This document shows positions 32,186 through 55,478 of a stretch of 57,833 bases of DNA, piece after piece. The stretch's first letter is position 1. Every line of letters starts with the position of its first letter. The position numbers and the translations under genes are program-made. The notes below the pieces were generated by a model. It ran no database searches, was not told the origin of the DNA, and saw only the letters and a list, made by a program, of their open reading frames with translations. Origin of the DNA: a virus (taxonomy: Duplodnaviria > Caudoviricetes); IMG/VR virus record IMGVR_UViG_3300033145_000723, positions 1-57,833 of that record; one strand, written 5' to 3'.

Positions 32186-32421
32186 AGTTTATCAAACTGG
32201 TGTCAAAGAGCAGAGCGACAACTGTCCTCTTCGTGAACCCTGAAACGATTACGCATATTGAGGGGTATGATGAAGGCACTTGCGTTTACACTTCAGACGG
32301 TTTTTTCACAAAGGTGGAAGATGCTCCTGAAACCGTTAAGCGTATGGCAGAGAACGCAACGAGTGACGTTGAAATTATGGATGTAGAAACGTTAAAAGAA
32401 CGAGTGAGGCAAAATGGCTAA
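32182..32421 (+). CDS. FlbD-like small protein
   Basis: FIKL...LFVNPETITHIE...T.V...DG...V.DAPETV matches the FlbD family pattern. Confidence 0.7.
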   Translation: MKFIKLVSKSRATTVLFVNPETITHIEGYDEGTCVYTSDGFFTKVEDAPETVKRMAENATSDVEIMDVETLKERVRQNG

Positions 32422-33280
32422 GAAGAAATTCAAAGTCGCAAAGAAAAAGTTCCAGGTAAAAAAGAACAAGAAGTTCGTGGTGAAGAAAAAGAAGTTCCAA
32501 GTGAAAAAGAATAACGCGCACCCGATTCCAATTGTTCCATTCCCCCCTGCAGAATTCAATTCAATCCTGATGGAGTCTGCGAAGCATTTCGGGTGGAGGT
32601 GCTTTTCACTTCGAACGCAAACGCGAAGTGGAGTTAGAGCAGAGAAACGATTTGTAATGGAGGAGTATGAAAGGTTCTTTGGTGAACCGCCTCCAGAAAA
32701 AATGCGTTGGCGTTTAGTCAAGACAAGAATCATCACCCATTGTCAATATCTCTTGGCTAGGCAAGATGGAAAGGAGAACGAACTCAAAGAGAAGTTTTGG
32801 AAAAGCTACTTTGCGGCATGGGGTCGCAAAGCAGAGAAGAATGATGTGCGGGATTTTGATGAACTTTCGAGATTTTTGTTTAACGTACTGGAGGAAAGTG
32901 ACATGGCGAAAAAGTCGAGCAAGAAAAAGGTTTCCAAGAAGGTCGCGAAGAAACAGTTGATCGTGAAGAAGAAGGTAGCCAAGAAAGCCACAAAGAAAAC
33001 CACAAAGAAAGTGGCGAAGAAGAAGACAACGAAAAAGGTTGCCAAGAAAAAGTCATCGAAAAAGGGCAACATCAGAACTCCCGCCGGTAGTCCTTTCAAG
33101 AAGGGCACCGCTGCTGGAATCGCGTGGGAGATTATCAAGCAGCAAAAGGCAAAGGGCAAAAAGGGTGACAAGATCAAAGAGATTCTTGATGCCGCGAGTG
33201 AATCAGGAAAGCTCCCTGCCCAGAATGGCAGTCGTTACTATGACTACATCATTGCGAAGTGCCCGAAGCTCAAGAGCTAG
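32414..33280 (+). CDS. Highly basic histone-H1-like DNA-binding protein; internal in-frame start at 32903
   Basis: KKKF.V repeats at the N-terminus, KKVAKK repeats in the C-half; SD GGAGG 8 nt before ATG 32903. Confidence 0.75.
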   Translation: MAKKKFKVAKKKFQVKKNKKFVVKKKKFQVKKNNAHPIPIVPFPPAEFNSILMESAKHFGWRCFSLRTQTRSGVRAEKRFVMEEYERFFGEPPPEKMRWRLVKTRIITHCQYLLARQDGKENELKEKFWKSYFAAWGRKAEKNDVRDFDELSRFLFNVLEESDMAKKSSKKKVSKKVAKKQLIVKKKVAKKATKKTTKKVAKKKTTKKVAKKKSSKKGNIRTPAGSPFKKGTAAGIAWEIIKQQKAKGKKGDKIKEILDAASESGKLPAQNGSRYYDYIIAKCPKLKS

Positions 33281-33296
33281 AACAAGCGCACAATCT

Positions 33297-33333
33297 GAGG
33301 GGGTCTGGGGAGCTTTTCTCCAGACCCCTTTTT
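33297..33333 (+). terminator. Intrinsic terminator
   Basis: ggggtctggggag / ttctccagacccc stem followed by ttttt. Confidence 0.85.
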
Positions 33334-33471
33334 GCGTTGGCATATGTCCTCTCAGGAGCTTACATCGCCTCAGTCAGACCGATTTCCCGCCTCTGTGAGC
33401 GACTTTGATCAGAATCCCCGGTAACGAGACCCGCAAGCGGTTCCAAGACCGCCAGAAGGAGAGCAGGAGCC

Positions 33472-34182
33472 ATGGCACAACGGAAAAAGAAGTTCAAGGT
33501 AACGAAAAGGAAAACGGTTGTCAAAAAGAAACCGAAGAGCTTGAAAGAGCGACTAATCGAAATGAAGTTATCCTCTCTCAATTTCCATCCAAAGAATCCG
33601 CGAGACCACGATGAAGGAAATCTCAAGGATATCATGGAGAGCTATGAAAACTTTGGAGAGATGCAACCGGTTGTCGTTTGGGGAATGAAAAATTATGTCA
33701 TTGTTGGTAACGGTAGGCTAGAAGCTGCAACCCGCCTTGGTTTGAAAGTTCTTTCTATAGTTCGTGCGGATCATCTTACAAAAGATGAAGCCGAATCATA
33801 CATGATCGCAGATAACAAATCGAGTGATTCCAGTAAGTTCAATAAGGAATTGCTTGCTGATATGTTCCAAGGTCTTCATGGACGTGGAGCAGATTTATCT
33901 CAGACGGGTTTCAGCCGGTTTGAAATTGAACCGCTGATTACTCCTGATGATGGAAACCATGATTTTTCACAGTTCGAAGATGAGATTGAAAAACTCTCTG
34001 GGGAGGACAGAGTTATAATCGGCGTGGAGGTTCAAGTGAAATTTGTGGAGCGAGTCACTGAGTGGCTTGCAAATGGGGAAAAGAAAACGGCATCCGGTTT
34101 AGGAAAAGGAGTAATGAAAAGATGCGGATTGCGCTCATCGAAGTCAAAAGTAAAGGTGAACTCTTCCCGATCCAGTTCCTAA
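33472..34182 (+). CDS. ParB/Srx-like N-terminal domain protein
   Basis: HPKNPRDH, SYENFG..QPVVV, IVGNGRLEAA, YMIADNK, DLSQTGF. Confidence 0.9.
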   Translation: MAQRKKKFKVTKRKTVVKKKPKSLKERLIEMKLSSLNFHPKNPRDHDEGNLKDIMESYENFGEMQPVVVWGMKNYVIVGNGRLEAATRLGLKVLSIVRADHLTKDEAESYMIADNKSSDSSKFNKELLADMFQGLHGRGADLSQTGFSRFEIEPLITPDDGNHDFSQFEDEIEKLSGEDRVIIGVEVQVKFVERVTEWLANGEKKTASGLGKGVMKRCGLRSSKSKVKVNSSRSSS

Positions 34183-35279
34183 AGATTGGGGCAATGCTCA
34201 GAAAGAAAAAGCACAAGGTGACACTTTTCAAGAACAAGCCACCGAAAGAACCAAAACGCTACGATGAAATTTGGCTCAGTGTCATTTTTACTTATGACTA
34301 TGAGTTGACTCACAAAATCGTGAGTGCGATTCGTGCAATGACAAAAGGGAAGAAGGTCAAACTTAAACTTGGGGGAACCGCGCCATCAATTTTCCCAGAA
34401 CAATTCAAGCATCTCGGCATCCCAATTCATACCGGTCTCATTCCAGAAGCGGAAAAGTGTACCCCCGATTACAGTTTGTTGGAAGAGGACTATGATTATT
34501 CAATCGGGTGGACTTCTCGCGGGTGCGTTCGGAAGTGTAAGTTTTGCGCCGTGCCAGTTGTTGAACCAAAGTTTTATCATGTAGACTGGTTCAAGAATAT
34601 TAACAAAACGAAAAAGAAGATTCTGTTCTACGATAACAACTGGTTGGCAAAGTCAAAGAAAGTCTTGAAGAAAGATGTTGAGCAAATGGTGCAACTTCAA
34701 GAGGAGTTTGGAATCACAGAGATCGATTTCAATCAAGCTCTTGACGCGCGTCTAATGACTGAAGAGATTGCAGATATTATTGCACCGGTAAAGCTGAGTC
34801 CAGTTCGTTTTGCGTTCGATGGAATGTGGGAAGATGGTTTGTGGCAGAATGCAATTAAGATGATGATTGATCGGGGATTTCGCACTTACAATAGTTTGGT
34901 GCTGTACAATTTCAAAGACACGCCAGAAGATTTGTACTATCGAATTCGTGAGCATGCAAGAATGACAAAGTTGATGGGGGGTAGTGATCTTGTCAAAGCT
35001 TTCCCCATGCGCTACCAACCACTCAAGATGATCAAACGTGATTTTCTGGGTGAGAATTGGACACGAAAGGAACGCTCTGCATTCCTACGCATCGTTTCGA
35101 TCCATGGAAGTTCTGGAACTGTCTCTTGCAGGAATCTAAACGAATTTGAATATTGGTTTGGGAAAAACGACAAAGAATTTAAAGCTCTGCTTAACTACCC
35201 GAGACTAAATGAACTTTTATTAAAACGCAAAGGGTATCTCATGGCAAATCGTGCCAAGGTGATAGAGGCTAAGAGATGA
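34122..35279 (+). CDS. Radical SAM enzyme with N-terminal cobalamin-binding-like domain; start MRIALI
   Basis: FPIQFLKIGAML, LSVIFTY, LGG.APS, TSRGCVRKCKFC (CX3CX2C), FYDNN, DFNQALDARL, RFAFD, FPMRYQP. Confidence 0.88.
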   Translation: MRIALIEVKSKGELFPIQFLKIGAMLRKKKHKVTLFKNKPPKEPKRYDEIWLSVIFTYDYELTHKIVSAIRAMTKGKKVKLKLGGTAPSIFPEQFKHLGIPIHTGLIPEAEKCTPDYSLLEEDYDYSIGWTSRGCVRKCKFCAVPVVEPKFYHVDWFKNINKTKKKILFYDNNWLAKSKKVLKKDVEQMVQLQEEFGITEIDFNQALDARLMTEEIADIIAPVKLSPVRFAFDGMWEDGLWQNAIKMMIDRGFRTYNSLVLYNFKDTPEDLYYRIREHARMTKLMGGSDLVKAFPMRYQPLKMIKRDFLGENWTRKERSAFLRIVSIHGSSGTVSCRNLNEFEYWFGKNDKEFKALLNYPRLNELLLKRKGYLMANRAKVIEAKR

Positions 35280-36667
35280 AGAAGGAATTTTACCCGCATC
35301 AAAAGAAAGCGTTTCATTATTCTATGGTTACTCGGCACCCTGCATATTTCATGGAGATGCGTCTTGGCAAAACGCTACCTTGTATTCGACGCTGCAAGCT
35401 TTACAAGCCACGTACTCCAGAACTAGGATTGCGTGCGCTTGTTGCAGCACCGAATAGCGCACTCGGTTCGTGGGAGCGCGAGTGTAAGAGTGAAGGCGTT
35501 GATATCAAATGGCTCACTGGAACAAAACGCGCGAGACAAGATGAACTGAGAGATGCAATGACCTTCAGCGAAAATCCTACTCCCACTTTTTGTTTAATGA
35601 ACAAGGAAGGTTGGATGACCATCCCAGAGATAAAGGATTGTCCATGGGATGCTGTAGTTATAGACGAGAGTACAGGAATCAAAGAGCAAAGAGCAAAGAT
35701 TACAAAGTTCTTCATGAAATATTTTCGTGGGAGTCTCCCGCACCGTTGGATTCTAACAGGAACACCGGACCCCGAAGGAGCACAAAACTATTTCTGCCAG
35801 TTGAAATTTCTGGACGGTCGTGCGTTCGGTCGAAAAGATTACTGGGGATTTCGTCAAGCGTACATGGAACCGCCGTATATTGGGCACGATTGGGTTTTTC
35901 AACCTGGAGCCGTTGACCATATCCGCAGAGAGGTGGGGAGACGCGCGTTTGTTCTTCGCCGTAAAGATGTAGACCTGGAAGAGAACAAAGTTCGTGAGCG
36001 GCGGGAGTTTGAATTTCCAACGAAACTCCGCAAGGCTTATGACAAACTCGAAAGTGAATTCGTTTTAGATTATAAGGAAACTTCAAAGAAAACTATTTGG
36101 AGCGGTGCCCGTTATCAATGGATGCGTCAAATTTGTGGCGGGTGCATTGACATGGAAATGATTTGGGATGGAAAGCTCCAAGATATTATTGAACTTCTGG
36201 AGGGGGAGTTAGCAAAGCAGCAGGTTGTGATTTGGTGCGCGTACAATCCTGAGATCAAAGCGATATATGAAACCCTCTCTGCATTAAAAATCAGTGTTGC
36301 GTATATGATCGGTGCAACAAAACCTACAGTTCGTCGCCAGATGGAAGCTGCTTTTTTGAAAGGAAAGCCACGGGTAATGATTTTGCAAGTCGCGATTGGA
36401 AACTTTGGTCTGAATTTATCATCATCAGATGTTGTCATGTACCATAGTTCACCAGTTGCACATCTCATGCGAGTCCAGACAGAAGATAGAATTGTAACGG
36501 TTCAAAAAGCAAAGGACAAACGTCCGCTCCTCTACATAGATTTTGTTGTCAAAGATTCAATTGATGAAGATGCTCTGTTACTGTTAGCAGGGAAGAAGAA
36601 AAGTTCTGACTTGAATCATTCACGCGCTTTAGCTTGTGCAATCAGAGAAAGGAAATCATGGGTATGA
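35276..36667 (+). CDS. SNF2-family helicase/ATPase
   Basis: MEMRLGKT, VVIDES, ILTGTP, QVVIWC, GNFGLNL, QTEDRI. Confidence 0.92.
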   Translation: MKKEFYPHQKKAFHYSMVTRHPAYFMEMRLGKTLPCIRRCKLYKPRTPELGLRALVAAPNSALGSWERECKSEGVDIKWLTGTKRARQDELRDAMTFSENPTPTFCLMNKEGWMTIPEIKDCPWDAVVIDESTGIKEQRAKITKFFMKYFRGSLPHRWILTGTPDPEGAQNYFCQLKFLDGRAFGRKDYWGFRQAYMEPPYIGHDWVFQPGAVDHIRREVGRRAFVLRRKDVDLEENKVRERREFEFPTKLRKAYDKLESEFVLDYKETSKKTIWSGARYQWMRQICGGCIDMEMIWDGKLQDIIELLEGELAKQQVVIWCAYNPEIKAIYETLSALKISVAYMIGATKPTVRRQMEAAFLKGKPRVMILQVAIGNFGLNLSSSDVVMYHSSPVAHLMRVQTEDRIVTVQKAKDKRPLLYIDFVVKDSIDEDALLLLAGKKKSSDLNHSRALACAIRERKSWV

Positions 36668-37170: not shown

Positions 37171-37710
37171 TTGCATGACTCTCTCACGAAATGGAGACGG
37201 TGCAAGCGTTGCGGATTATCCAAGACGCGCAAGAAAGTTGTCATGGGGAAAGGTTCCTTGCCATGTGATGTACTCTTCATCAGTGACGCGCCACACCGGT
37301 CTGATGACATGACAGGCTTACCATTTTCCGGTCCTGATGGAAGAGTTTTAAGAAGTGCTTTGAAAAGTGCTATCCTCTTAGCAAATATATCGAGTGATTA
37401 TATTACTTATTACATCACTCATTGCGTAGCTTGCCGTCCGTGTGATGATCGAACGGAACCAAATCGAGACCCGACAGGCGAAGAGATTTGGGCATGCTTC
37501 CAGAGGCTAGAGGAAGAGGCACTTTTAGCGGACCCGCAGCACGTTGTCTTTCTTGGAAAACTTGCAGAGAAAAGTTGCCGGCAATTATTTCCTGCAGGCA
37601 TTGCTCTTCAGCATCCGAGTTACGTTTATAGTCAAGGTGGTACAAATTGTGCTGCTTACACTCAGTTCATTCGGGAACTTTCGGAGGTCTTTAGAAAATG
37701 TACAAGATAA
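37171..37710 (+). CDS. Family-4 uracil-DNA glycosylase-like [4Fe-4S] protein with divergent active site
   Basis: CKRCGL, G.PFSGPDG, CRP...NRDPT..EI.AC, LGKLA, HPSY; GEAPG replaced by SDAPH and YITN by YITH. Confidence 0.88.
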   Translation: MHDSLTKWRRCKRCGLSKTRKKVVMGKGSLPCDVLFISDAPHRSDDMTGLPFSGPDGRVLRSALKSAILLANISSDYITYYITHCVACRPCDDRTEPNRDPTGEEIWACFQRLEEEALLADPQHVVFLGKLAEKSCRQLFPAGIALQHPSYVYSQGGTNCAAYTQFIRELSEVFRKCTR

Positions 37711-39247: not shown

Positions 39248-39592
39248 ATGATGAAATCAAACTGCCCTAAAACTTGTACGGTTGGTTACACTCTTCTGTT
39301 CACTACGAATTTGAGACTCGTGAACAAACGTACAACTATCTCTGTAGCAGAAGCGGCTAAAGCTCTTGCAAAGATGACGGGAAAGATGATGAAAGCGGGT
39401 GACGTTTTCAAAAAGTTTGAAAGTTTGCTTGATGAAGAAAGGGAAAGGAGAGATGGCGAAAAAGAAAAAGAAAGTAGCGAAAAAGAAAGTGGCAAAGAAA
39501 AAGGTAGCGAAGAAAAAAGCCAAGAAGAAATCGAAAAAGAAAGTGGCGAAAAAGAAGCACCGTTCAGTAATGGATTTGTCCCTGCCGACTGA
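39248..39592 (+). CDS. Hypothetical protein overlapping the ATPase start
   Basis: SD GGAGG before MMKSNC; the C-terminus is an alternate-frame read of the Lys-rich tract. Confidence 0.45.
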   Translation: MMKSNCPKTCTVGYTLLFTTNLRLVNKRTTISVAEAAKALAKMTGKMMKAGDVFKKFESLLDEERERRDGEKEKESSEKESGKEKGSEEKSQEEIEKESGEKEAPFSNGFVPAD

Positions 39593-40439: not shown

Positions 40440-41624
40440 ATGGCGAAAAAGAGTAAGTTTGCAGGCAAGCTAAAGAACATGGAAGGCGTTTGGGCTGATG
40501 CGCGTCCTGCTGGCGAGAGCTTGCCGGAAGGAACGTATGAACTTCAAGTCCAGAACATTGAACTGAAAGAGACGCAGAACAATGACCCGCGCGTTTCTAT
40601 CACCTATCTTGTTACGGATGGTGAATTCTCTGGAGAGATGGCCTTTGATGGATTCGTTCTGTCTGAGGAAAAGCCTTTCGGCATTCGTCTCTTTAAGGGT
40701 TGGCTGCAGAAGATGGGTTACGAAGTTCCTGAAACATTCCAAGAGATCGAAGACCTGCTTGCAGATATTGCCAAGGACAATCCTGTTGTCGTTGGTAAGG
40801 CAGTCAAGAGCGGAGACTTTACAAACATTCGTCTCCAGGAAGTTCTTGCCAAGTCGAGTGATGGTGAAGGAACTGCGGCGGGTGACGATTCGTGGGTAGG
40901 AAAATCAGTTCTCTACCAAGAGGAAGAGACTGCTTGTGAAGTAACGGTTGATGATGGTGGTGATGAAGTCACTATCACAGATGAAGCCGGAACAAATTAT
41001 GACGTTGCACGTTCCGATTGTGCTCTACAGGAAGAGGAAGAAGAAGAGGAAGAGGAAGAAGAGGAAACCGAAGAGGAAGAGGAAGAGGAAGAGGAGAGTG
41101 AAGAGGAAGAGGATGAATCCTGGAAGGACAAACAAATAACCTATCAGGAAGAAGAAGAACCGTGTACCGTTACGGTTGACGATGGTGGTGATGGTATCAC
41201 GATTCAGGATAGTGACGGAACGGATTATGAAGTTAAGCGTTCTGAATGTACTTTGGTTGAAACTGAAGAAGAAGAGGAGGAGGAAGAGGAAGAGGAAGAG
41301 GAGAGTAGTGGTGCTGCAGCACTCATTGAGTTTGCAGTTGGCTACGGTGTTGCTGAGGATGCACTGAATGATGAAATGTCCACGGAAGAAGTTGTCGCGG
41401 TACTTGACGGTTACGATTGGCCTGAAGACAAGTTCATGGAAGAAGAGGTTGCACTTCTGAAGGAGCATGGGGTCAAGATGATTAAGGCAAAGAAGAAACC
41501 CGCCGCCAAGAAACCCGCTGCAAAGAAAAAGACAACTACCAAGAAACCTGCAGCGAAAAAGAAAACCGCAACGAAGAAGAAGACAGCAACGAAAAAGAAA
41601 ACAAAGACTAAGGGCAAAAAGTAA
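40440..41624 (+). CDS. DUF669-type ssDNA-binding protein with two repeated acidic beta domains, poly-Glu tracts and a Lys-rich tail
   Basis: LPEGTYELQVQNIELKET...DGEFSG...FD.F.L; internal repeats SWVGK...CAL / SWKDK...CTL. Confidence 0.82.
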   Translation: MAKKSKFAGKLKNMEGVWADARPAGESLPEGTYELQVQNIELKETQNNDPRVSITYLVTDGEFSGEMAFDGFVLSEEKPFGIRLFKGWLQKMGYEVPETFQEIEDLLADIAKDNPVVVGKAVKSGDFTNIRLQEVLAKSSDGEGTAAGDDSWVGKSVLYQEEETACEVTVDDGGDEVTITDEAGTNYDVARSDCALQEEEEEEEEEEEETEEEEEEEEESEEEEDESWKDKQITYQEEEEPCTVTVDDGGDGITIQDSDGTDYEVKRSECTLVETEEEEEEEEEEEEESSGAAALIEFAVGYGVAEDALNDEMSTEEVVAVLDGYDWPEDKFMEEEVALLKEHGVKMIKAKKKPAAKKPAAKKKTTTKKPAAKKKTATKKKTATKKKTKTKGKK

Positions 41625-41644: not shown

Positions 41645-41690
41645 GGTTGCGGGTGGGAGGTTTGGACCACGACTCCCACCCGCAATTTTC
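41645..41690 (+). terminator. Intrinsic terminator
   Basis: ttgcgggtgggag / ctcccacccgcaa 13-bp stem followed by ttttc. Confidence 0.8.
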
Positions 41691-41707
41691 TAATAGGAGG
41701 AAAGAGA

Positions 41708-41857
41708 ATGAAACACGATCAAGCAGAACCTATCAGTGGGGAAGCAACCCCAAAGAGAAAACGACACCTTTCAGATTATGCCGACTACCTTTTTTGGATG
41801 ATCGTTCCTGCTTTTTTTCTCTTTGGTTTATCTCTTCTTGTGATGCTATACAGTTAA
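41708..41857 (+). CDS. 49-aa membrane protein absent from the ORF track
   Basis: SD AGGAGG; MKHDQAEP...YLFWMIVPAFFLFGLSLLVMLYS*. Confidence 0.65.
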   Translation: MKHDQAEPISGEATPKRKRHLSDYADYLFWMIVPAFFLFGLSLLVMLYS

Positions 41858-41874
41858 CTGAGCAGGAGGTATCT

Positions 41875-43650
41875 ATGCAGTGCATCAGTTACGATACAGA
41901 GACAACTGGACTAAGCCCATACAAAGATGGGGAGATTTTTGCCTACAGCACTTGCGATTCAAATGGTGAAATCTACGTAGGAAGAACCGATGAAAAAAGT
42001 CGCGCACCAAATAAAGCAAGAAGAATCCTTCGTGAGCTTTGGGATAACGTAAAGATTGCGAAGGTCATGCACAATGCAAAATTTGATTTATCGATGACAG
42101 AGAAATACTTTGACCGCCGACTCGCTGAAGATCATCCGATTCATGACACCATGATTCAAAGTCACTTACTCCAGAACGATCATCATAATCATGCACTCAA
42201 GCAGGTGGCATGGGAACTAGCTGGAGTACCGCGAGATGATGAAGAAGCAATTAAACCGTATACAACTGGAGAGTTTGAAAACTACAGCACCGTTCCAAAT
42301 CGTTTGATGCGTGAGTACCAAAAACGTGACGCTGAAAGAACGATGCTTTTACATATGTTTTTCTATCCAAAGATCAAAGCGAATGCCGGTCTCCTGGATA
42401 CGTATGAAACTGAGATGGAATTGATTCGTACTACTCTGCGTATGGAAGGACGTGGAGTAATGGTCCACCGGGGGAACTGTATTAAGCTCAGAGAAAAACT
42501 CAAGGTTGATTGTGAAATTGTCCTTCAGGAATGTGAGCAACTTCTTGGAGAGAGGATCAATCTTGGAAATGACAATCGAATTCGAGCACTCCTTTACCAC
42601 GAATTGAATATGCCCAGACTAAAACTCACTCCGAAAGGTACTGGGGTAAGTGTAGCAAAAGAAGTGTTGATGGAACTGAGGGAACTGAAACCGCACCCTA
42701 TTATCAATATGATTTTGAAGTACAAGTCATGGAGAAGAGGAATCACAATTCTCAATGGCTACCTGGAGCTATGCGGTGAAGATGGTATTGTACACCCCCA
42801 GTTAAAAACATGCGGTGCAAAATCTGGGAGAGAGTCTTGCCGTAAACCTAACCTTCAGAACGTGGCGAAGGAAGAAGTTTTACTGAACCCCTATCCTATC
42901 GCTGCACGAAAAGCCTTTAGACCCAAACCTGGATTTGTGAATCTTCACTTTGACTATAAAGGGATTCAATTCAAGCTTGCCGTTTGGCTCACTGGTGACG
43001 AGAATCTTTTTGCGATGGTGAGGAAAGGAATTGATCTGCATGTTGTCGGTGCTGAAATCCTTTGCGGTAATCGCTGGATCAAAGCAACGAAGGATCAAAA
43101 GAAAATTCTGAGGAGTGCCTGTAAGAACGCGAACTTCGCAAAGATGTTTGGAGCGGGTCTCGCAAAGGTGAGTGCCACCCTTGGCTTTAGTGTTACCGCT
43201 GCAATCTTCCGCGCGTACAATCAAGTCTTTGGTAGTTTGGATGTGAGTGCCAAGAAAATCATTAGAGCCGCGAAAGAAGATGGGTACATCACAACGATTC
43301 TCGGAAGGCGTTTGCGGATTCCATCTTCGAAAGCGTACATCGCAACGAACTATATGATGCAAGGATCGGAAGCAGATATTCTCAAGAGAGCACAAAACAG
43401 AGTCCACCATTTTCTTGAGAAAGCTACTGGAGGGGAAGCGGGTTTGATTCTTCCAGTGCATGATGAAATTATTATTGAGTACCCCCGCAACCGTTTGGGA
43501 GACGTGGATGAAATTGTCACTGAGATCAAAAGATTGATGTCAGATTTTCCTCAGGTGGGAATTCCACTTGATGTAGATGTTGAGGTTACAACATTGAATT
43601 GGGCAAGCAAAAAGAAGTACAGAAAGGAGAGCTTCCACCATGCCGCTTAG
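41875..43650 (+). CDS. polA: Family A DNA polymerase with 3'-5' exonuclease; start MQCIS
   Basis: YDTETTG, HNAKFD, YQKRD (exo); PNLQN, FDYKGIQ, RSACKNANF, NYMMQGSEAD, VHDE (pol). Confidence 0.95.
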   Translation: MQCISYDTETTGLSPYKDGEIFAYSTCDSNGEIYVGRTDEKSRAPNKARRILRELWDNVKIAKVMHNAKFDLSMTEKYFDRRLAEDHPIHDTMIQSHLLQNDHHNHALKQVAWELAGVPRDDEEAIKPYTTGEFENYSTVPNRLMREYQKRDAERTMLLHMFFYPKIKANAGLLDTYETEMELIRTTLRMEGRGVMVHRGNCIKLREKLKVDCEIVLQECEQLLGERINLGNDNRIRALLYHELNMPRLKLTPKGTGVSVAKEVLMELRELKPHPIINMILKYKSWRRGITILNGYLELCGEDGIVHPQLKTCGAKSGRESCRKPNLQNVAKEEVLLNPYPIAARKAFRPKPGFVNLHFDYKGIQFKLAVWLTGDENLFAMVRKGIDLHVVGAEILCGNRWIKATKDQKKILRSACKNANFAKMFGAGLAKVSATLGFSVTAAIFRAYNQVFGSLDVSAKKIIRAAKEDGYITTILGRRLRIPSSKAYIATNYMMQGSEADILKRAQNRVHHFLEKATGGEAGLILPVHDEIIIEYPRNRLGDVDEIVTEIKRLMSDFPQVGIPLDVDVEVTTLNWASKKKYRKESFHHAA

Positions 43651-46904: not shown

Positions 46905-47620
46905 CACTTTTTTCAAAAGCAAACCTTGTCGTGAGTCAAGTGGCAAGTAAAGACAAATTCGACAAGGGATTAAGTGGAGTGCAATTTGAACCAGATGGTT
47001 CCACCGTTGCAGGGAACGGTAGAGTCCTCATGGCAGTTGGACCCGCGAACGAAGACAAGATTCATTTTCCAGATGTAGGAGAGCGCGACTCTCCTGGAAA
47101 AAGTGGCGTGGTCCTGAGTGTTAATTTTGTCACTGAGGCGTTAAAGAATCTTCCAAAGGACAAACGAATTTCTCTTCAACATGTTGCTATGACAAAAGCA
47201 AAGAGTTCAGGAAAGAAAGAGTTCACTTGTATTACTGGGGGAGGGTTGGAGCGGAGAGTTGCCGATAAACCTATGCGGGAGGTGTACCCGAATTGGAAAG
47301 GTGTCATCAAAAAGGTTCGCGGTGATGATCCTGTCAAAGTTTGTGTTAATCGGCGTGACTTGATCGATCTTCTAAAAGCTCTTGAGTCTGCTTGCCCAGA
47401 TAAAGGAAATGAAAATCCACTCTTCCTTGAGATCAACAAAGGAATTGTTCTTCGATGCTTTAACCGGGAGACCGGTCAACATGCTATCGGCGCTATCAAT
47501 GCTTTCAACACTCAAGGGCATTGGATGGAACGCGACGAATGGGAGAAGAGTATTTTTCAAAAGAACATGTTACCAAAGCGGAAGAAATTCACCGTCAAGA
47601 AAAGGGGAGAGAAGAAATGA
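46901..47620 (+). CDS. DNA sliding clamp (beta-clamp)-like protein
   Basis: LSGVQFE...TVAGNGRVL...YPNWKGVI...VCVNRRDLIDLLK resembles LNGV...VATDGHRL...YPNYR.VI...V.VNR..L of DnaN. Confidence 0.72.
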   Translation: MTLFSKANLVVSQVASKDKFDKGLSGVQFEPDGSTVAGNGRVLMAVGPANEDKIHFPDVGERDSPGKSGVVLSVNFVTEALKNLPKDKRISLQHVAMTKAKSSGKKEFTCITGGGLERRVADKPMREVYPNWKGVIKKVRGDDPVKVCVNRRDLIDLLKALESACPDKGNENPLFLEINKGIVLRCFNRETGQHAIGAINAFNTQGHWMERDEWEKSIFQKNMLPKRKKFTVKKRGEKK

Positions 47621-48645
47621 AACGTGCACTCATTACTGGAATCACTGGACAAGATGGAAGCTATCTAACCGAATTACTTCTGGGGAAAGGGTACGAGGTT
47701 CACGGTATCATTCGCAGAGCGTCGAACTTTAATACGCAAAGAATTGAACACCTCTATGAAGACAGTCATGAAAAAGGTGTAAGACTTTTTCTTCACTTCG
47801 GTGACATGGCAGATGGAAACGGACTTCATAAAATTGTGAATGAAGTTGAACCACATGAAGTTTACAACCTTGCAGCGCAAAGTCATGTTGCAGTCAGTTT
47901 TAAGCAACCAGAATATACCGCTAACATTGTGGCAACAGGAACACTCAGGTTACTTGAAGCAGTTTGGCAATTTGAAAAAGCAAGAAAACAAGCAGTCAGA
48001 TTTTACCAAGCGGGAACGAGTGAGATGTTTGGTAACGGAACAACAGTTCAAAATGAATCCACTCGGTTCAATCCCTGCAGTCCCTACGCAATCAGTAAAG
48101 TTGCGGCGCATCATTATTGCGTGAACTACCGAGAGGCACACGGTATGTTTGTCTGTAATGGCATCCTCTTCAATCACGAGAGTCCAAGACGCGGTGAAAC
48201 TTTTCTTACCAGGAAAATCACTCGCGCAATGACTCGCATCCGTGTGGGAATCCAAGATGAAATTTACCTTGGAGATTTAACAACGGAACGCGATTGGGGT
48301 CATGCAAAAGATTACGTGCTGGCAATGTGGCTTATGCTACAGCAAGATTGTCCAAACGATTATGTTATTGCAACTGGAGAAGCGCATACCGGACAAGAGT
48401 TCTTAGAGTTTGTTTGTGATATTCTGGAGCTTAACTGGAGAAAGTACTTTCGGTTTGATGAACGGTACTGTAGACCTCGTGACGTTTACTCCCTCTGTGG
48501 TGACGCAGAGAAAGCACGAAGGTGCCTGAATTGGAAACCAGAAATTCCTTATGGAAACATGGTTGCTGAAATGGTTGCGCAGGATATGAAGCTTGCGCTT
48601 GAAGAAAAGTTGACTATTGAAAACTTTGGAGACGAAACGAAATGA
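47617..48645 (+). CDS. gmd: GDP-mannose 4,6-dehydratase
   Basis: ALITGITGQDGSYL, YNLAAQSHV, YQAGTSEMFG, PCSPYAISK, NGILFNHESPRRGETF, RDWGHAKDYV. Confidence 0.98.
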   Translation: MKRALITGITGQDGSYLTELLLGKGYEVHGIIRRASNFNTQRIEHLYEDSHEKGVRLFLHFGDMADGNGLHKIVNEVEPHEVYNLAAQSHVAVSFKQPEYTANIVATGTLRLLEAVWQFEKARKQAVRFYQAGTSEMFGNGTTVQNESTRFNPCSPYAISKVAAHHYCVNYREAHGMFVCNGILFNHESPRRGETFLTRKITRAMTRIRVGIQDEIYLGDLTTERDWGHAKDYVLAMWLMLQQDCPNDYVIATGEAHTGQEFLEFVCDILELNWRKYFRFDERYCRPRDVYSLCGDAEKARRCLNWKPEIPYGNMVAEMVAQDMKLALEEKLTIENFGDETK

Positions 48646-51031: not shown

Positions 51032-51670
51032 TTATACCCAAACTGGTTTTCCGTTATCATCAAATTGCTGACCTACAAAACCTTCCCACGGTTCATGTTT
51101 AGGAAATGGTTGCGCGTCACCCCATGCCTTACGAATGGGTACAGACGAATGACGCAAGAGACTATTTTGAATCTGGGGTAAAACGATTCGCGCGAGTAAC
51201 TTCATATCACCAACTCGCGGAATCGGTCTCCTGAATCGCATCTTTAATGGGCAAGGTTGCGCGAGTACCTTCCCCATCACTCCCCACATCCCACCAAAAA
51301 TTGGAAGGCTTGCATGATGTACATGATCGTGCATGCAGTGAGCTTTCTTCCCTGATTGAATCCAATGTTCAACAGCTGCCGCCTCTCGCGGGTTAATGCG
51401 AGAGTCAGTATCACGGAAGATAACCCGCTCAACTTTCTCATCCCACGCTGGCAAAAACCTCCAAAGCATTCCAGAATGAAGATTACTCTTTCCCATCCTG
51501 TGAATCTCTACCCCTAACCTCTTCAATTTTGAAGTAGGAGTTCTGTCCTCACAATAGACAACCATTTTCCATCCTGGATAAACCGATGACATAAGTTTGG
51601 CGTTTTCGATAGCGCCTTGAACGTACATCGGTTTCTTGCCATAGACAGAAAAACTAACTACCTGTTTCAT
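51032..51670 (-). CDS. Putative GT-A glycosyltransferase (paralogue of 52271-52912)
   Basis: SFSVYG, GAIENA, YPGW, GMLWRFLP, IFRDTDSR (DxD), MHDH.HH, GGMWG. Confidence 0.7.
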   Translation of the reverse strand: MKQVVSFSVYGKKPMYVQGAIENAKLMSSVYPGWKMVVYCEDRTPTSKLKRLGVEIHRMGKSNLHSGMLWRFLPAWDEKVERVIFRDTDSRINPREAAAVEHWIQSGKKAHCMHDHVHHASLPIFGGMWGVMGKVLAQPCPLKMRFRRPIPRVGDMKLLARIVLPQIQNSLLRHSSVPIRKAWGDAQPFPKHEPWEGFVGQQFDDNGKPVWV

Positions 51671-52286
51671 ATCCCCATTCCTTTGCAACGGGTCCGCACT
51701 TCTCAGCCATCAATTCATATCCCCATGGAGGAATAATAGATCGCCAAAGACCAGGAGTTACGGTACCGATATGTCCTGGACCCATACGAAATCTATTCTC
51801 ACCTTTCACTACCGGTTGAGCACACCGCTTTCTATTCTTGTCCAAACTAAACTTATCCTTGATCGTGTCGCGTAAAGCCATCGGTACAATTTTGTTCAAT
51901 CGTTCCTCAATCAAATCGAAAATCAAATCGTAATTGTTGTAGAAATCCTCATAGCGTAGCAGAGCCATTTCAGGAAGTTCCTTAACCCATGCAGTAAGCG
52001 GAGCAAAATGTTTTATCATTTCATTTAACTCTGCATCAAGTCCTGCAAGATTCGCAATGTTGACAAGACCAGTTTGGTCTCTAAGTGTTCTATGTCTGAA
52101 TCGACTCGCACCAACATCGTAAGGATTTCGAATGGTCACAATAATGAAACTTCCATCCGGTTCCCATGCGGCGGGATGCGTCTTGCCAATTTTTACTTTT
52201 GGGAATACCTCACTGATTAACTGCCAAACCAACGTTGACCCTGAACGTGGAATTCCCCCTACTGTAATTTTCATATCTTCGGCCAT
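51654..52286 (-). CDS. Sulfotransferase (PAPS-dependent)
   Basis: GIPRSGST (5'-PSB loop), KTH, IRNPYD..AS (3'-PB), RYEDF, G.W. Confidence 0.88.
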   Translation of the reverse strand: MAEDMKITVGGIPRSGSTLVWQLISEVFPKVKIGKTHPAAWEPDGSFIIVTIRNPYDVGASRFRHRTLRDQTGLVNIANLAGLDAELNEMIKHFAPLTAWVKELPEMALLRYEDFYNNYDLIFDLIEERLNKIVPMALRDTIKDKFSLDKNRKRCAQPVVKGENRFRMGPGHIGTVTPGLWRSIIPPWGYELMAEKCGPVAKEWGYETGS

Positions 52287-52912
52287 ACTGCTTTCCCCCC
52301 ATCATCAAACTGCTGTCCAACGAAACCTCTCCATGACTTATGAGCAGGGAAAGGAAGATGTTCCCATTCAACGGGAACGGAACTATGCCGCATCAAACTA
52401 TTTTTTATGTGTGGCCAAATGTACAAACGCAAAAGATGCAAATCAGAAGTACCTCTTTCGAGGTGTGACATATAGCGAGTCCAAGGGTACATGATATTCG
52501 GGAGGATGTTCCCTTTCACTCCCATCATCCCACTCATCAAATACAAACTCTGGTGATGGGGATGGTCATGCATGCAATGTGCGTCTAGCCCAGAATTTTC
52601 CCATTCCATAACCGCCGCTGATTCTCGTGGTCCAATTCTGGAATCTGCATCTCGAAAAATAACTCTCTCCACCCCCTCCAGCCACGCCGGTAGAAATCGC
52701 CAAAGCATCCCAGAGTGAAGATGTGAAATTCCCATACGTTCGATAACACAACCTAACGCTTCAAGATCAGTTGTATCTACATCATCAGCAGCAAAAACTC
52801 GCATCTGCCACCCTGGATAAATTCGCGGCATGAGCTTTGCATTTTCTAATGCACCGTTAAGGTATCTTGGAGATTTCCCATAGAGAGGGAAACTCACAAT
52901 CTTCAAGCCCAT
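52271..52912 (-). CDS. Putative GT-A glycosyltransferase (paralogue of 51032-51670)
   Basis: SFPLYG, GALENA, YPGW, GMLWRFLP, IFRDADSR, MHDHPHH. Confidence 0.7.
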   Translation of the reverse strand: MGLKIVSFPLYGKSPRYLNGALENAKLMPRIYPGWQMRVFAADDVDTTDLEALGCVIERMGISHLHSGMLWRFLPAWLEGVERVIFRDADSRIGPRESAAVMEWENSGLDAHCMHDHPHHQSLYLMSGMMGVKGNILPNIMYPWTRYMSHLERGTSDLHLLRLYIWPHIKNSLMRHSSVPVEWEHLPFPAHKSWRGFVGQQFDDGGKAVWPKI

Positions 52913-53676
52913 TCCAAAATCCTTTCTCTCCAATAACCCATGTCCAATTTTTTCATAGAGTCATGCGAGAATCTCTCGTGTAGTTTTGCGTGCTCATTCA
53001 TCAAAAGTCTTTCAGTTACTTGCGCCCAATGATCAATTCTGAGGCAAGGCATATCTGCAAGGATATCTGTAGCTCGTGAACGAATCACAATAGGAATGGA
53101 GCCTAGTGCAATCGCTTCCCAATGCCTATGGCAATCCGGTCCTGCTCCTGGAGGTGAGATCGTGAACGGATGGTGCCTCATGTCTTGATAGAAAATATCT
53201 GCAGGGATATGTTCAAAGCCTCCCTTTGCTGTGATCCAAGGTCCCCCACCAAGAAGTTCATAGATTCCCTCGCGCGGATTTGGATTGCAAGGAATGTTTC
53301 TCAAGAAACACATGGTGCAAGTATTCACAGGCGGTTGCACTCCCAGAGAAATTTGATCTGAAAGAATCTGTTCTTTCTCTACGCTCTGGAGCATTCCAAT
53401 TGGAATTGCAGTAACCTTCGGATGCGTGGTCTCTACGTTATTCGAAAACCAATGCTCTACATTTTTCGGGAGACGGTTTGCCATTCGAGTTGTTACGATA
53501 GCATCTGAGAATGATGTAAGCAAAACGCAAGGCCCAAACGTAGAGAGTTGTTTGAACTGCTTCCTTATGGAATGCGTTCTGCAATAAACGAATCGACCTG
53601 GAAGCGCAATCTCTTGAGCATAGTTTGCTCCAGCGATATCCGCAACTCTCTGGTTATTGACTGGTTGAAAATTCAT
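52903..53676 (-). CDS. Exostosin/GT47-like glycosyltransferase
   Basis: HWFSNN, IPIG, FTISPPGAGPDCHRHWEAIALGSIPIV. Confidence 0.8.
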   Translation of the reverse strand: MNFQPVNNQRVADIAGANYAQEIALPGRFVYCRTHSIRKQFKQLSTFGPCVLLTSFSDAIVTTRMANRLPKNVEHWFSNNVETTHPKVTAIPIGMLQSVEKEQILSDQISLGVQPPVNTCTMCFLRNIPCNPNPREGIYELLGGGPWITAKGGFEHIPADIFYQDMRHHPFTISPPGAGPDCHRHWEAIALGSIPIVIRSRATDILADMPCLRIDHWAQVTERLLMNEHAKLHERFSHDSMKKLDMGYWRERILEWA

Positions 53677-54269
53677 TTCGTTTTCCTTCTAAACTCACCG
53701 AAGAAACGATTGTCAGAACGCACACCATTATTTACAGTTGGAGATGGAATCACACGAATGGTTTCAAAGTGTCGCTCAAATTCTTCTTGTAGTTTTGGAA
53801 ATTGATCGTTCGCATGAGACTCAAAGAAAAGCGTTCCTCCCTGGAAGAGAAGAGACGCAACCTTTGCAAGATAATGTTCAAAAGGAACCTGAGTATAGTA
53901 CCAAACGGCGAATGAAAATAAAACATCATACTTCACTTTGATACTCATAGTGACAAAGGAACCAACTTCAAAAGAGCAATTTGGAAAGGGGTAAAGATGC
54001 CGCGCGAGATCGATAGATTCAGGGTCTATATCAATCCCATGATAGCCACTACAAGACTTCGAACAGAAACGGGAGAATCCCCCGATATTGCATCCAACGT
54101 CCAGGATACTCTTGCTCTGGATGTTCTCAGGAGAGATATCGTAAAGCTTCCAACGTGTTTCCATATCACGAGTGGCACCCGCTACCCCCTCGACACTCTG
54201 GTAAAGCTCACCCGATTCTGAGAAGCGTAGTTTCTTCTTGAGATATTCCTGGATCTTACTATCCATCAT
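53673..54269 (-). CDS. Class I SAM-dependent methyltransferase
   Basis: ILDVGCNIGGF, GIDID, YDVLF, GGTLFFES. Confidence 0.88.
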   Translation of the reverse strand: MMDSKIQEYLKKKLRFSESGELYQSVEGVAGATRDMETRWKLYDISPENIQSKSILDVGCNIGGFSRFCSKSCSGYHGIDIDPESIDLARHLYPFPNCSFEVGSFVTMSIKVKYDVLFSFAVWYYTQVPFEHYLAKVASLLFQGGTLFFESHANDQFPKLQEEFERHFETIRVIPSPTVNNGVRSDNRFFGEFRRKTK

Positions 54270-54717
54270 TTACCTTTCTGAATAAGGGAACTTGAGATGA
54301 AAGATTTAACAAAAGCTCAAAGAGAAACTTTGCCAAGGGGTCAAAAAGAATTTTGCATTTCTCGTCAAGCAAAAGACAAATATGATTCTCGCTTGACATA
54401 TAAAGTTGAGCTACCTTTCCAAATGGAAACTCTGCCATCTTTTCTTTGGTGAATCCTTCCGGTGTCTTTTGCAAAGGGTTGATGACACCATCTACAATCA
54501 CAGCTTCAATTGGAAAGTCAATTCTCTTTGCTGCACATAATCGATGCGTTCCATCAATCGCTTGATAATACTCACCGCAATCAACAAGTGGAATCGGACG
54601 AAAGCACCAACCATGTCTTTGCAATAACGATGCAAACAAACTAGCTTTATTCGGATAGGCTACATGATGCCCGCTCCAAATTGGCTTGCCTTTGTATTCG
54701 TAAGAAAAAAAGTCCAT
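54259..54717 (-). CDS. ParB/Srx-like domain protein
   Basis: SLLQRHGW...PI...YQAIDGTHRLCAAK. Confidence 0.75.
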   Translation of the reverse strand: MDFFSYEYKGKPIWSGHHVAYPNKASLFASLLQRHGWCFRPIPLVDCGEYYQAIDGTHRLCAAKRIDFPIEAVIVDGVINPLQKTPEGFTKEKMAEFPFGKVAQLYMSSENHICLLLDEKCKILFDPLAKFLFELLLNLSSQVPLFRKVNDG

Positions 54718-54725
54718 GAGATTCC

Positions 54726-55478
54726 TTACAGATAATTTCTTTCCACGAGTGCCTTCAAATTTTCATGCCGATCCCATTGATGAATCACGGTAGGAACTTC
54801 ACCAGCTATATTCAAAATCTTTTCTTCGTCAACTCTAACTGTCTCTCGTGGCATATATCCCACGGTGTAAACTTCACTCTTCTCACTCTCATGAATTTCG
54901 CCAGAGAACTTTCTTTGCCGGATGATATGATTGTGACAAGATTGATCTTGTGGTTTCGTCGTGAGATGCTGCAGTCTTTTGAGTTCATGCACGAGCTTGA
55001 GTAAATGCGCCGCTACATGTTCCCGACTACCGCAGAACGTTCCAACACAAGAGATAGGGAAATTTCTCAACCGATCAAGTTCCGTTTCTCCATAACCAAT
55101 ATCAACCCAATCAGAATTGTACGGGCAAGTTCCAATTGTCATGCAACGATCTTCTTCATAAGCATGGAATCCATTCGACTTCATTAGATCAGGATTCTTT
55201 TGAAAAATTACATCTCTCGTATCGCAACAAAGAACACCGTTGCAAGATATCTGCGCAAGAGCTTCCTGAATCCAATAGAATCTTTCTGCATGCGGAAGCG
55301 TTTTTACTGGGGGAGGTGTCCGCACATCTGCATCCCAGTCTTGTGCTTCTTTCGCTGCTCCTTTCGTTGCAAAAAGAATGACGCGCTTTTGGTATCCTGT
55401 TGCACGGAGACTTTTCAAGAACGGTCTGATCTGTTCCCGATTGTAACCAACAGCCGCACCAATAATACAATCAATCAT
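54726..55478 (-). CDS. Putative GT-A glycosyltransferase
   Basis: PFLKSLR.TG, ERF, CDTRDVIFQKNP, DQ..HN, VIHQWDR. Confidence 0.75.
   Translation of the reverse strand: MIDCIIGAAVGYNREQIRPFLKSLRATGYQKRVILFATKGAAKEAQDWDADVRTPPPVKTLPHAERFYWIQEALAQISCNGVLCCDTRDVIFQKNPDLMKSNGFHAYEEDRCMTIGTCPYNSDWVDIGYGETELDRLRNFPISCVGTFCGSREHVAAHLLKLVHELKRLQHLTTKPQDQSCHNHIIRQRKFSGEIHESEKSEVYTVGYMPRETVRVDEEKILNIAGEVPTVIHQWDRHENLKALVERNYL

Follow-up and report, generated by a model that had tools for sequence, protein, structure and literature searches.

Introduction

To our knowledge, the modifications of phage DNA are made by a small set of enzymes, which comprises S-adenosylmethionine (SAM) methylases, glycosyltransferases, TET dioxygenases, transglycosylases, and a 5-hydroxymethyldeoxyuridine (5-hmdU) kinase with its transferases. 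A known theme is the pairing of a ParB-superfamily protein with a DNA-modifying enzyme. For instance, DpdB has its role beside DpdA, in the system that yields 7-deazaguanine in DNA. The role of DndB, the ParB-superfamily protein of the phosphorothioation system, is treated in the accessible part of PMC10853773. As for radical SAM (rSAM) enzymes, the accessible part of PMC8989533 calls gp53 of phage M6, a spore photoproduct lyase (SPL)-like isomerase of thymidine hypermodification, the first of them to install a DNA modification. Here, we describe two overlapping genes, for a ParB_N protein and an rSAM enzyme, in a tailed-phage contig of IMG/VR (record IMGVR_UViG_3300033145_000723, positions 1 to 57,833; this whole stretch of 57,833 nucleotides (nt) is called the window below). 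A literature search that did not extend to subscription journals found no description of a ParB–rSAM pair or of this rSAM family acting on DNA. The reading that we put first, tentatively, is a ParB-guided rSAM enzyme that acts on DNA.

A Translationally Coupled and Mobile Gene Pair

A first-pass annotation, made by a model from the letters of the window, had noticed overlapping genes for a ParB_N protein and an rSAM enzyme, and both open reading frames (ORFs) are borne out on the + strand (Table 1). The rSAM gene was mechanically listed from a GTG at 34062 (ORF 34062-35279). Since all 24 aligned homologs begin at the position of the ATG at 34122 (MRIAL...), and a Shine–Dalgarno-like AAGGAG precedes this codon by 10 nt, the true gene is 34122-35279. 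Both genes are thereby translationally coupled through an overlap of 61 nt in the window. Chance ORFs are ruled out by homologs down to E 1e-112.

The gene neighborhoods of homologs, whose comparison had been proposed as a check, show that this pairing is conserved. The comparison covered 102 loci, of which 22 are viral and 80 come from species-representative genomes; the viral loci were found by an alignment-based scan of contigs, the scan with a single protein having given none. In a tree of 98 sequences, from which rows shorter than 300 amino acids (aa) were dropped (L019 included), the window falls in a clade of 22 rows with a support of 100 in the Shimodaira–Hasegawa-like approximate likelihood ratio test (SH-aLRT), where ParB is upstream in every row except the cut L012. 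Counted over the close-clade loci (L002-L019 and L028-L031, this time with L019), the ParB gene lies directly upstream of the rSAM gene in 21 of 22, and the sole exception, L012, begins inside the rSAM gene. The ParB stop codon falls exactly 16 nt inside the rSAM gene in 16 of these 21 loci, the exceptions being L002, L006, L014, L016, and L019. A hidden Markov model (HMM) of the C-terminal module of the ParB protein, run on six-frame translations, finds the module in 22 of the 102 loci, namely, the 21 close-clade loci and the sister locus L020, and in none of the distant clades; across the compared loci, its co-occurrence with this rSAM clade is exclusive. A reverse scan of viral contigs for the module gave 18 loci, 15 of them with the rSAM gene immediately downstream.

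The replication genes that follow the pair in the window were not found by blastp (E 1e-5) in any of the 22 related viral loci. Instead, a gene for the terminase large subunit lies within a few genes of the cassette in 10 of the 12 related loci scanned with Pfam, and DNA methylases are present in three of these loci. Because the replication genes are absent from relatives, where the terminase is close instead, the cassette moves independently of the replication module, and, as judged by sequence comparison, the ParB–rSAM pair is a conserved, mobile two-gene cassette. This has a consequence for the earlier proposal that altered active sites in the replication enzymes support DNA modification. 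The deviations themselves are present. The uracil-DNA glycosylase (UDG)-family protein (37171-37710) keeps HPSY and has SDAPH at residues 38-42, where we take a GEAPG-type motif to be the consensus of family-4 enzymes. In PolA (41647-43650), motif A reads DYKGIQFK and motif B reads RSACKNANFAKMFG, so that, relative to what we assume to be the PolA consensus, the acidic residue of motif A is replaced by Gln and the Tyr of motif B by Phe. Yet these deviations do not bear on the cassette, since relatives carry it without those genes, and the proposal is not supported.

The ParB Partner

The ParB protein has both the ParB_N fold and the GxxR nucleotide-binding motif of the ParB/Srx superfamily. 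It scores 28.3 bits against the Pfam ParB_N cut-off of 26.3 (E 1.8e-6) and matches phrog_620, "ParB-like partition protein" (1.1e-33). Its model has a predicted local distance difference test (pLDDT) score of 78 and is nearest in Foldseek to the N-domains of the ParB/Noc/KorB cytidine triphosphatases (E 1.7e-6), with structures bound to cytidine diphosphate (CDP) or CTPgammaS as the top matches. As read from the alignment, the Arg of the GxxR motif is kept in 15 of 18 aligned partners. A chromosome or plasmid partition ParB (ParABS) was considered and rejected, as the protein reaches 31.8 bits in the partition-ParB model TIGR00180, whose cut-off is 58.45, and a scan of 62 window ORFs revealed no ParA-type ATPase.

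After the plain ParB families, the best profile matches are the N-terminal ParB modules of ParB-fused DNA methyltransferases. Residues 9-169 align to positions 16-173 of the 633 of phrog_498 (E 4e-31), and the PADLOC model MTase_II (PDLC03229) is matched through its ParB module (3.9e-18). Pfam found no methylase domain in the 236 aa of the protein, and the phrog_498 match is confined to the ParB module. Because the best matches other than plain ParB are such methylase-fused modules, the earlier statement that the rSAM enzyme takes the place of the usual methylase is a fair description.

What distinguishes these partners is a C-terminal module of ~57 aa, made up of an acidic stretch, a strand, a WLANGE helix, a glycine-rich loop (G.GKGV), and a KRCGLL end, with invariant Gly and Cys residues. 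Mean pairwise identity among the partners is 41% in this module and 23% in the ParB_N core. A search of a protein database with the module returned only the window's own protein, a result that, with so short a query, does not imply absence elsewhere. The window protein also has features of its own, namely, a lysine-rich N-terminal tail (residues 1-24), an isoelectric point (pI) of 9.5 against a median of 5.1 for its relatives, and a C-terminal extension of 17 aa, absent from relatives, that follows from the loss of the usual stop codon.

The Radical SAM Enzyme

The rSAM protein matches phrog_9298, "radical SAM domain protein" (3.3e-39), and belongs to a family that is large, uncharacterized, and mostly viral. 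A word-indexed search gave 2013 proteins at E<=1e-3; identity is 40-50% for the best 120, and where their source names them at all, the name is "hypothetical protein". An exhaustive search of 50%-identity representatives gave 1419 proteins at E<=1e-3, 618 at <=1e-10, and 119 at <=1e-30. The matches in the ESM Atlas are unnamed clusters only, mostly viral, and those of a fold search in BFVD are only unnamed phage rSAM or COG1032 proteins. Among GenBank phages, only 16 records match, the best being Marinitoga camini virus 1 with 31% identity. PADLOC has no model for the enzyme (0 families for 4 rSAM members), and in NCBIfam only sub-threshold matches were obtained, to B12-rSAM families.

The family has a single cluster motif, CxxxCxxC, which is invariant in 25 close and 45 diverse members, and C135, C139, and C142 are its only invariant cysteines. 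In the Rossmann domain, F56, G84, and G85 are likewise invariant. The enzymes are basic, with a median pI of 9.1 in the 25 close and 9.0 in the 45 diverse members, and the C-terminal 45 residues of the modeled protein are helical.

The AlphaFold2 model of the enzyme (pLDDT 89.5, predicted template modeling score 0.85) has MgmA as its best Foldseek match, and the top ranks also hold TsrM, AprD4, MiaB, CysS, TokK, RimO, and OxsB (E 1e-8 to 9e-5). A Foldseek-independent VIA search with both domains gives AprD4 (Z 21.5), MgmA (20.7), TsrM (17.6), MiaB (17.3), OxsB (17.2), and RimO (16.9). Many rSAM cores can be aligned to the model (Z 9-21), so that its partial TIM-barrel core is recognized. As modeled, the architecture is a Rossmann domain plus a radical SAM barrel, which is common to class B enzymes, methylthiotransferases, and AprD4.

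At the level of the family, 31 of the 45 diverse members match the B12-binding domain (PF02310) at E<=0.01 (best 1.6e-8), 28 of the 45 match Radical_SAM (PF04055) at the same threshold, and the relative in L020 scores 33.4 bits for B12-binding, above the 32.1 cut-off. It is on this family evidence and on the fold that the assignment of a B12-type Rossmann domain rests, because the Pfam scores of the window protein itself are sub-threshold. The chances that the modeled enzyme depends on B12 are about even. AprD4 works with a partner reductase and without cobalamin; as the top structural match is, we take it, B12-independent, this architecture can presumably work without B12.

Two other candidates were set aside. 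Frataxin matches in the solved-structure search have E of at least 0.18 and are due to chance. A methylthiotransferase of the MiaB/RimO kind is not borne out, as residues 1-112 have no auxiliary-cluster cysteines and no TRAM match appears even at E<=10.

Some homologs carry additional elements. Intein or homing-endonuclease domains (LAGLIDADG or HNH) occur in six of 19 long homologs scanned (P0133, P0134, P0135, P0154, P0202, and P0220), and the insertion in P0134 is close to the cluster-binding motif. Two related phage loci have a second, shorter rSAM paralog near the cassette (L005, 2268-3083, and L006, 3370-4275; 50 and 125 bits to the family HMM). A word-index search for longer fused forms gave only three proteins, whose annotations are intein or rSAM, and revealed no new fusion. 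An apparent ParB–rSAM fusion in L120 was rejected; its ORF of 735 aa results from an alternative frame that stays open in high-GC DNA, and the two genes are in different frames, as in the other loci.

Predicted Complex of ParB and rSAM

The complex was predicted in three runs, with three controls, from both alignments and with the cluster and SAM included. The interaction prediction score from aligned errors (ipSAE) has a median of 0.48 (runs 0.43, 0.48, and 0.52), and the best of the three controls has 0.00. Contacts are shared between the runs to at least 83%, with a partner pLDDT of at least 74. In the calibration, 116 of 157 solved complexes and two of 215 mismatched pairs passed the mark; among these, only 18 of the 157 solved complexes and both passing mismatches had an ipSAE <=0.60, counts that are only a rough guide here, as the present runs use their own alignments and riding ligands. 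The prediction lends weak support to a physical interaction of ParB and rSAM, and it adds a modest increase to a prior that was already fairly high.

Distant Clades and Their Links to DNA

Neighbors within four genes of the rSAM gene were clustered (682 proteins), and one representative per cluster was scanned with Pfam and PADLOC. Near the distant rSAM clades, a GHKL/HSP90-type ATPase recurs in 42 loci, a minimal SNF2 helicase of similar size in 13, and a DndB/DpdB-like protein beside the enzyme in 12 (representative: Pfam DndB 2.2e-13, PADLOC DpdB 1.7e-17). Other rSAM neighbors are a 340-aa protein that weakly matches PD-Lambda-5_A and PDC-M38A (24 loci), a mad8-like protein (14), a cyclase-like protein (five), and a protein of metallo-beta-lactamase fold (four). 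In Methanobacteriaceae and other archaea, PbeA (six loci) and PbeC/DndD-like proteins (eight loci) are found.

Several gene orders recur in L032-L107. One consists of a 340-aa, possibly DUF262-like protein, a 137-aa protein, SNF2, a 340-aa protein, rSAM, and GHKL; another has a 387-aa protein, a mad8-like protein, GHKL, and rSAM; and two begin with DndB/DpdB, followed by rSAM and GHKL or by the metallo-beta-lactamase-fold protein and rSAM. These recurrent operons look like uncharacterized defense systems. The accessible part of a 2026 preprint (10.64898/2026.10.19.760177) lists a neighborhood of cyclase, HSP90, and radical SAM among predicted immune effector systems, and this neighborhood is probably one of the distant clades described here. 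Taken over all clades, the contexts are centered on DNA: ParB, DndB/DpdB, SNF2, GHKL, Pbe, C5 methylase, and terminase-proximal positions.

Some members are linked directly to DNA methylases. A scan for fusions covered 19 long representatives out of 150 listed. Two of them, P0166 and P0260, belong to different clades and each combine a complete C5 DNA methylase, its motifs read by eye, with this rSAM enzyme in one protein; one further long form has a C-terminal methylase fragment. In L096, a C5 methylase gene is directly upstream of the rSAM gene. These links are suggestive but thin. The modification context proposed at first agrees with what is seen in other clades, which stand in neighborhoods of the DNA-modification or restriction type or are fused to C5 DNA methylases.

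Two further loci may be noted. In L025 (Bacteroides phage BI-TP1), a phrog_9298 rSAM gene is flanked on both sides by an annotated DNA methyltransferase, with a PAPS-reductase-like gene nearby (PAPS, 3′-phosphoadenosine-5′-phosphosulfate). PAPS-reductase-like enzymes are often paired with ParB-like proteins. In L118, a C5 methylase gene lies 1.3 kb upstream of a pair formed by ParB and a TerL-like gene.

What the Pair May Do

A ParB-guided rSAM enzyme that acts on DNA is the reading that we favor, with some reserve, because of the coupled pairing, the partner-specific module, the DNA-centered contexts of every clade, and the basic pI. Of these, the obligate and translationally coupled pairing weighs most, together with the partner-specific module, and the contexts come next. 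On this reading, the mobile cassette of the phages would encode a radical SAM system that is directed to DNA and made up of two subunits. Its ParB_N protein would be the subunit that engages DNA, as a nucleoside triphosphate (NTP)-dependent clamp or loader comparable to the ParB modules found in fusions with phage DNA methyltransferases, and the clade-specific C-module, a proposed docking element, would hold the basic rSAM enzyme. The latter would bind SAM and a single [4Fe-4S] cluster, with a corrinoid probably seated in the N-terminal Rossmann domain. Its radical chemistry would take place on a nucleobase of the phage DNA, most likely as C-methylation or as further elaboration of a C5 substituent. 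The phage genome may thus be marked or protected against host restriction before it is packaged.

Several results weigh against this reading. In Pfam, the window enzyme scores 16.6 bits for Radical_SAM (PF04055), where the cut-off is 29.5. The N-terminal B12-type Rossmann domain of the first-pass annotation stands as a fold, in the AlphaFold2 model and the PF02310 matches of the family, but for its B12 class the single protein scores below the Pfam cut-off (19.3 bits against 32.1, E 1.1e-3). Likewise, the AlphaFold and Foldseek check suggested there recovers the Rossmann and barrel folds, while the N-domain alone resembles corrinoid-binding domains (Z ~10) and CheY-type receivers (Z ~9.4) almost equally. 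No significant sequence match to solved structures was obtained with the protein and two profiles, so that no active site can be transferred. The substrates of the best structural matches are diverse: an aminoglycoside (AprD4), protein (MgmA), tryptophan (TsrM), tRNA or ribosomal protein (MiaB, RimO), and a nucleotide (OxsB). The predicted complex is only a weak pass. Complete methylase fusions are rare, with two, plus one partial, among the 19 long forms scanned; phmmer finds any DNA methylase in only six of the 102 loci; and a metagenome scan with P0166 gave eight loci with the rSAM part and 72 with C5 methylases, none with both. The window itself has no DNA methylase or nucleotide-modifying gene among the 62 ORFs scanned. 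Finally, one lineage (L116-L118, three of the 18 loci of the reverse scan) keeps the ParB C-module without an rSAM gene. In L118 (2416-4898), the ORF that overlaps the ParB stop starts with the first seven residues of the rSAM enzyme and continues as a 579-aa TerL-like protein, and the rSAM gene has apparently been removed in this lineage by a deletion, as judged from its sequence.

A possibility that the first-pass annotation overlooked is that the rSAM enzyme modifies the ParB protein itself. We consider this unlikely. The tail of ParB (..WLANGE..G.GKGV.KRCGLL) would be a substrate peptide, as it is with class B enzymes that modify proteins or peptides (MgmA, Mmp10, and the maturases of RiPPs, peptides made on the ribosome and modified after translation), and it is the modified ParB that would have the function. 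In favor of this, no part of the partner is more conserved than the C-module, which occurs only with this rSAM clade and has its invariant Gly and Cys; MgmA, a protein glutamine methylase, is the best Foldseek and second-best VIA match; and a weak predicted interaction suits a substrate as well as a subunit. Nevertheless, sister clades with different neighbors and no module have the same invariant residues, which argues for a common substrate other than the tail. The conservation of the tail is also explained in part by its codons, which at the same time encode the rSAM start and hold the ribosome-binding site of the rSAM gene. In addition, the L116-L118 lineage retains the module after the enzyme was lost, and in the window the pair is still kept with a tail that is 17 residues longer.

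Still less likely is a free nucleotide or another small molecule as the substrate. The reaction would then be a dehydration of the AprD4 or viperin kind or, as with OxsB, a rearrangement of an NTP or deoxy-NTP, giving a modified precursor or an inhibitory nucleotide, and the NTPase domain of ParB would supply or sense the nucleotide. AprD4 is indeed the best VIA match (334 residues aligned), and OxsB reaches Z 17.2, but the fold matches have an identity of only 10-15% and are uninformative about the substrate. On the side of the partner, ParB_N domains bind cytidine triphosphate, and the top fold matches are the CDP- or CTPgammaS-bound ParB structures; yet the cassette is not accompanied by a partner reductase, a kinase, a gene of nucleotide metabolism, or a dedicated polymerase. 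One distant clade has a cyclase-like gene and a GHKL ATPase, a neighborhood similar to that in the accessible part of 10.64898/2026.10.19.760177, whereas the C5 DNA methylase fusions and the DndB/DpdB and Pbe contexts point to polymer DNA.

It is improbable that there is no modification system at all, with ParB serving in packaging or partition (as a binder of a pac site or parS by the terminase) and the rSAM being an unrelated auxiliary or anti-defense enzyme on the same transcript, or a DNA-damaging weapon against host or competitor DNA: this would suit the cassette's place immediately upstream of the terminase genes in most relatives and the L118 ParB gene, which directly precedes and overlaps the TerL-like gene, but a functional pair is favored by the overlap of 16 nt, by the module specific to the clade, and by the predicted, if weak, interaction, the window cassette is ~8.6 kb from its terminase gene and on the opposite strand, the 62 ORFs scanned include no ParA-like ATPase, and the ParB protein falls far below the partition-ParB model, as given above.

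The preferred reading, a ParB-guided rSAM enzyme acting on DNA, can be widened to the whole family, and in this form it becomes doubtful. The family would then be an unrecognized class of DNA-modifying enzymes that perform oxygen-independent C-H chemistry on nucleobases, delivered to DNA by ParB in phages and by DndB/DpdB-like proteins, GHKL ATPases, SNF2 helicases, or a fused C5 methylase in cells. Such chemistry might be a corrinoid-dependent C-methylation of bases, or the conversion of 5-methylcytosine to an ethyl or hydroxymethyl form as an anaerobic counterpart of TET-type oxidation. If true, it would define "radical SAM restriction-modification" systems together with the matching self-protection cassette of phages. 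The interest of the family lies in its size and lack of a name; its partner and its architecture are defined, and it stands in DNA-conflict contexts in phages as well as in cells. Should the enzyme act on DNA, a new and probably oxygen-independent chemistry would be added to the epigenetic and anti-restriction repertoire, and a set of uncharacterized defense-island operons would be explained.

Setting of the Pair in the Window

The contig is linear, with an estimated completeness of 89%. Its minus strand carries terminase-like, portal, Mu-F-like, capsid-like, and tape-measure genes, and a replication block on the plus strand has genes for an SNF2 helicase, a RuvC-like protein, a UDG-family protein, a PD-(D/E)XK nuclease, a Sak4-like AAA_24 protein, a DUF669 protein resembling single-stranded DNA-binding (SSB) proteins, PolA, and Toprim. 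The ParB and rSAM genes are the first two of this block. A terminator-like hairpin separates the ParB gene from an upstream lysine-rich gene, and since this hairpin and its TTTTT lie upstream, the pair probably begins a transcription unit. That the pair opens the replication operon, as first proposed, is therefore plausible, and the overlap of its genes on the + strand is confirmed. A consensus promoter and terminator scan overlooked the hairpin at 33300, and its counts were like those obtained with shuffled sequence.

The SNF2 helicase gene begins within the end of the rSAM gene, its start and the rSAM stop codon sharing ATGA at 35276-35279. This helicase may be a third partner or simply a replication helicase; in virus vir335, genes for a phrog_62 (SNF2) helicase, rSAM, and ParB are adjacent, and a three-part ParB–rSAM–SNF2 unit is possible.

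Table 1. Features of the ParB–rSAM locus, with positions in the window.
Feature	Position	Strand	Basis
Terminator-like hairpin, 12-bp stem, 5-nt loop, then TTTTT	33300..33334	+	Inverted-repeat search and direct sequence reading
ParB_N/Srx-superfamily protein, 236 aa	33472..34182	+	Pfam ParB_N, phrog_620, phrog_498, fold
ParB_N core, residues 28-120	33553..33831	+	Pfam stretch 28-98
GxxR motif GNGRLEAA, residues 79-86	33706-33729	+	Motif positions
Conserved C-terminal module of ParB, residues 163-219	33958..34128	+	Identity and module HMM
Shine–Dalgarno-like AAGGAG	34106..34111	+	Direct reading; 10 nt upstream of rSAM start, inside ParB GKGV codons
Radical SAM enzyme, 385 aa	34122..35279	+	phrog_9298, homologs, AlphaFold2, fold matches
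N-terminal Rossmann-like (B12-binding-type) domain, predicted, residues ~1-112	34122..34457	+	Pfam sub-threshold, family matches, fold
CxxxCxxC motif CVRKCKFC, residues 135-142, [4Fe-4S]/SAM	34524..34547	+	Alignments
Minimal SNF2-family helicase	35276..36667	+	Pfam SNF2-rel_dom 1.2e-13, Helicase_C, phrog_62 2.5e-69

Other features of the phage were also observed. Lysine-rich, histone-H1-like tails (KKVAKKK repeats) occur in several window proteins (32414-33280, 33472-33543, 39399-39570, and 41540-41624), at the N-terminus of the ParB and Sak4-like proteins and at the C-terminus of the DUF669 protein. One of them belongs to the 288-aa protein encoded just upstream of the cassette (32414-33280), which has no Pfam or PHROG match. 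Within the DUF669 SSB-like protein (40440-41624), a unit of ~60 aa (..VTVDDGGD.VTI.D..GT.Y.V.RS.C.L..) occurs twice as an internal repeat, and a poly-Glu run comes after each copy. The phage also carries a sugar and glycan tool kit (9891-10820, 47521-48645, and 51032-57718) with GDP-mannose 4,6-dehydratase, NAD-dependent epimerase, FkbM-type and class I methyltransferase, GT47-like, and sulfotransferase-like genes. A second radical SAM gene, with a SPASM domain, lies at 56783-57718.

Comparison with Known Systems

The ParB-fused DNA methyltransferases of phages have the same ParB module, with the catalytic partner directly after it. By contrast, the catalyst in the window is a separate, coupled rSAM enzyme and not a fused N6, N4, or C5 methylase, and its ParB protein adds a C-terminal module found only with this enzyme. 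The same logic, an NTPase of ParB/Srx fold beside a DNA-modifying enzyme, is seen in DndB with DndC (phosphorothioation) and in DpdB with DpdA (7-deazaguanine in DNA), and distant rSAM clades lie directly beside DndB/DpdB-like genes. Nevertheless, the rSAM enzyme belongs to another superfamily, and no DndA/C/D/E or DpdA/C was found among the window ORFs scanned. For the three genes of the window, PADLOC returned MTase_II (ParB), nothing for rSAM, and weak DpdE/ZorD matches for the SNF2 helicase.

On the side of the enzyme, the class B enzymes MgmA, TsrM, OxsB, CysS, and TokK share the N-terminal Rossmann domain and the radical SAM barrel (VIA Z 13-21). The window enzyme is much shorter than these (385 aa), without the extra C-terminal domains of TokK, CysS, and OxsB, and at 10-15% identity it has no sequence-level match to any solved chain; its binding of cobalamin is only predicted. 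The best structural match, AprD4 (a radical SAM 1,2-diol dehydratase, PDB 6fd2), is superposed with a root-mean-square deviation of 3.2 A over 334 residues; yet it is only 12% identical and acts on an aminoglycoside, and no partner from an aminoglycoside or sugar pathway is linked to the cassette.

The nearest precedent for a phage rSAM enzyme that acts on DNA is M6 gp53, which, according to the accessible part of PMC8989533, works on DNA after replication. It differs from the window enzyme in being SPL-like and without a Rossmann domain, and in its place within a pathway of 5-hmdU kinase and aGPT-Pplase, whose genes are absent in the window; SPL is not among the listed fold matches of the window enzyme. 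A ParB-guided rSAM enzyme could well extend the known theme in which a ParB-superfamily protein accompanies a DNA-modifying enzyme, a view that we advance with caution.

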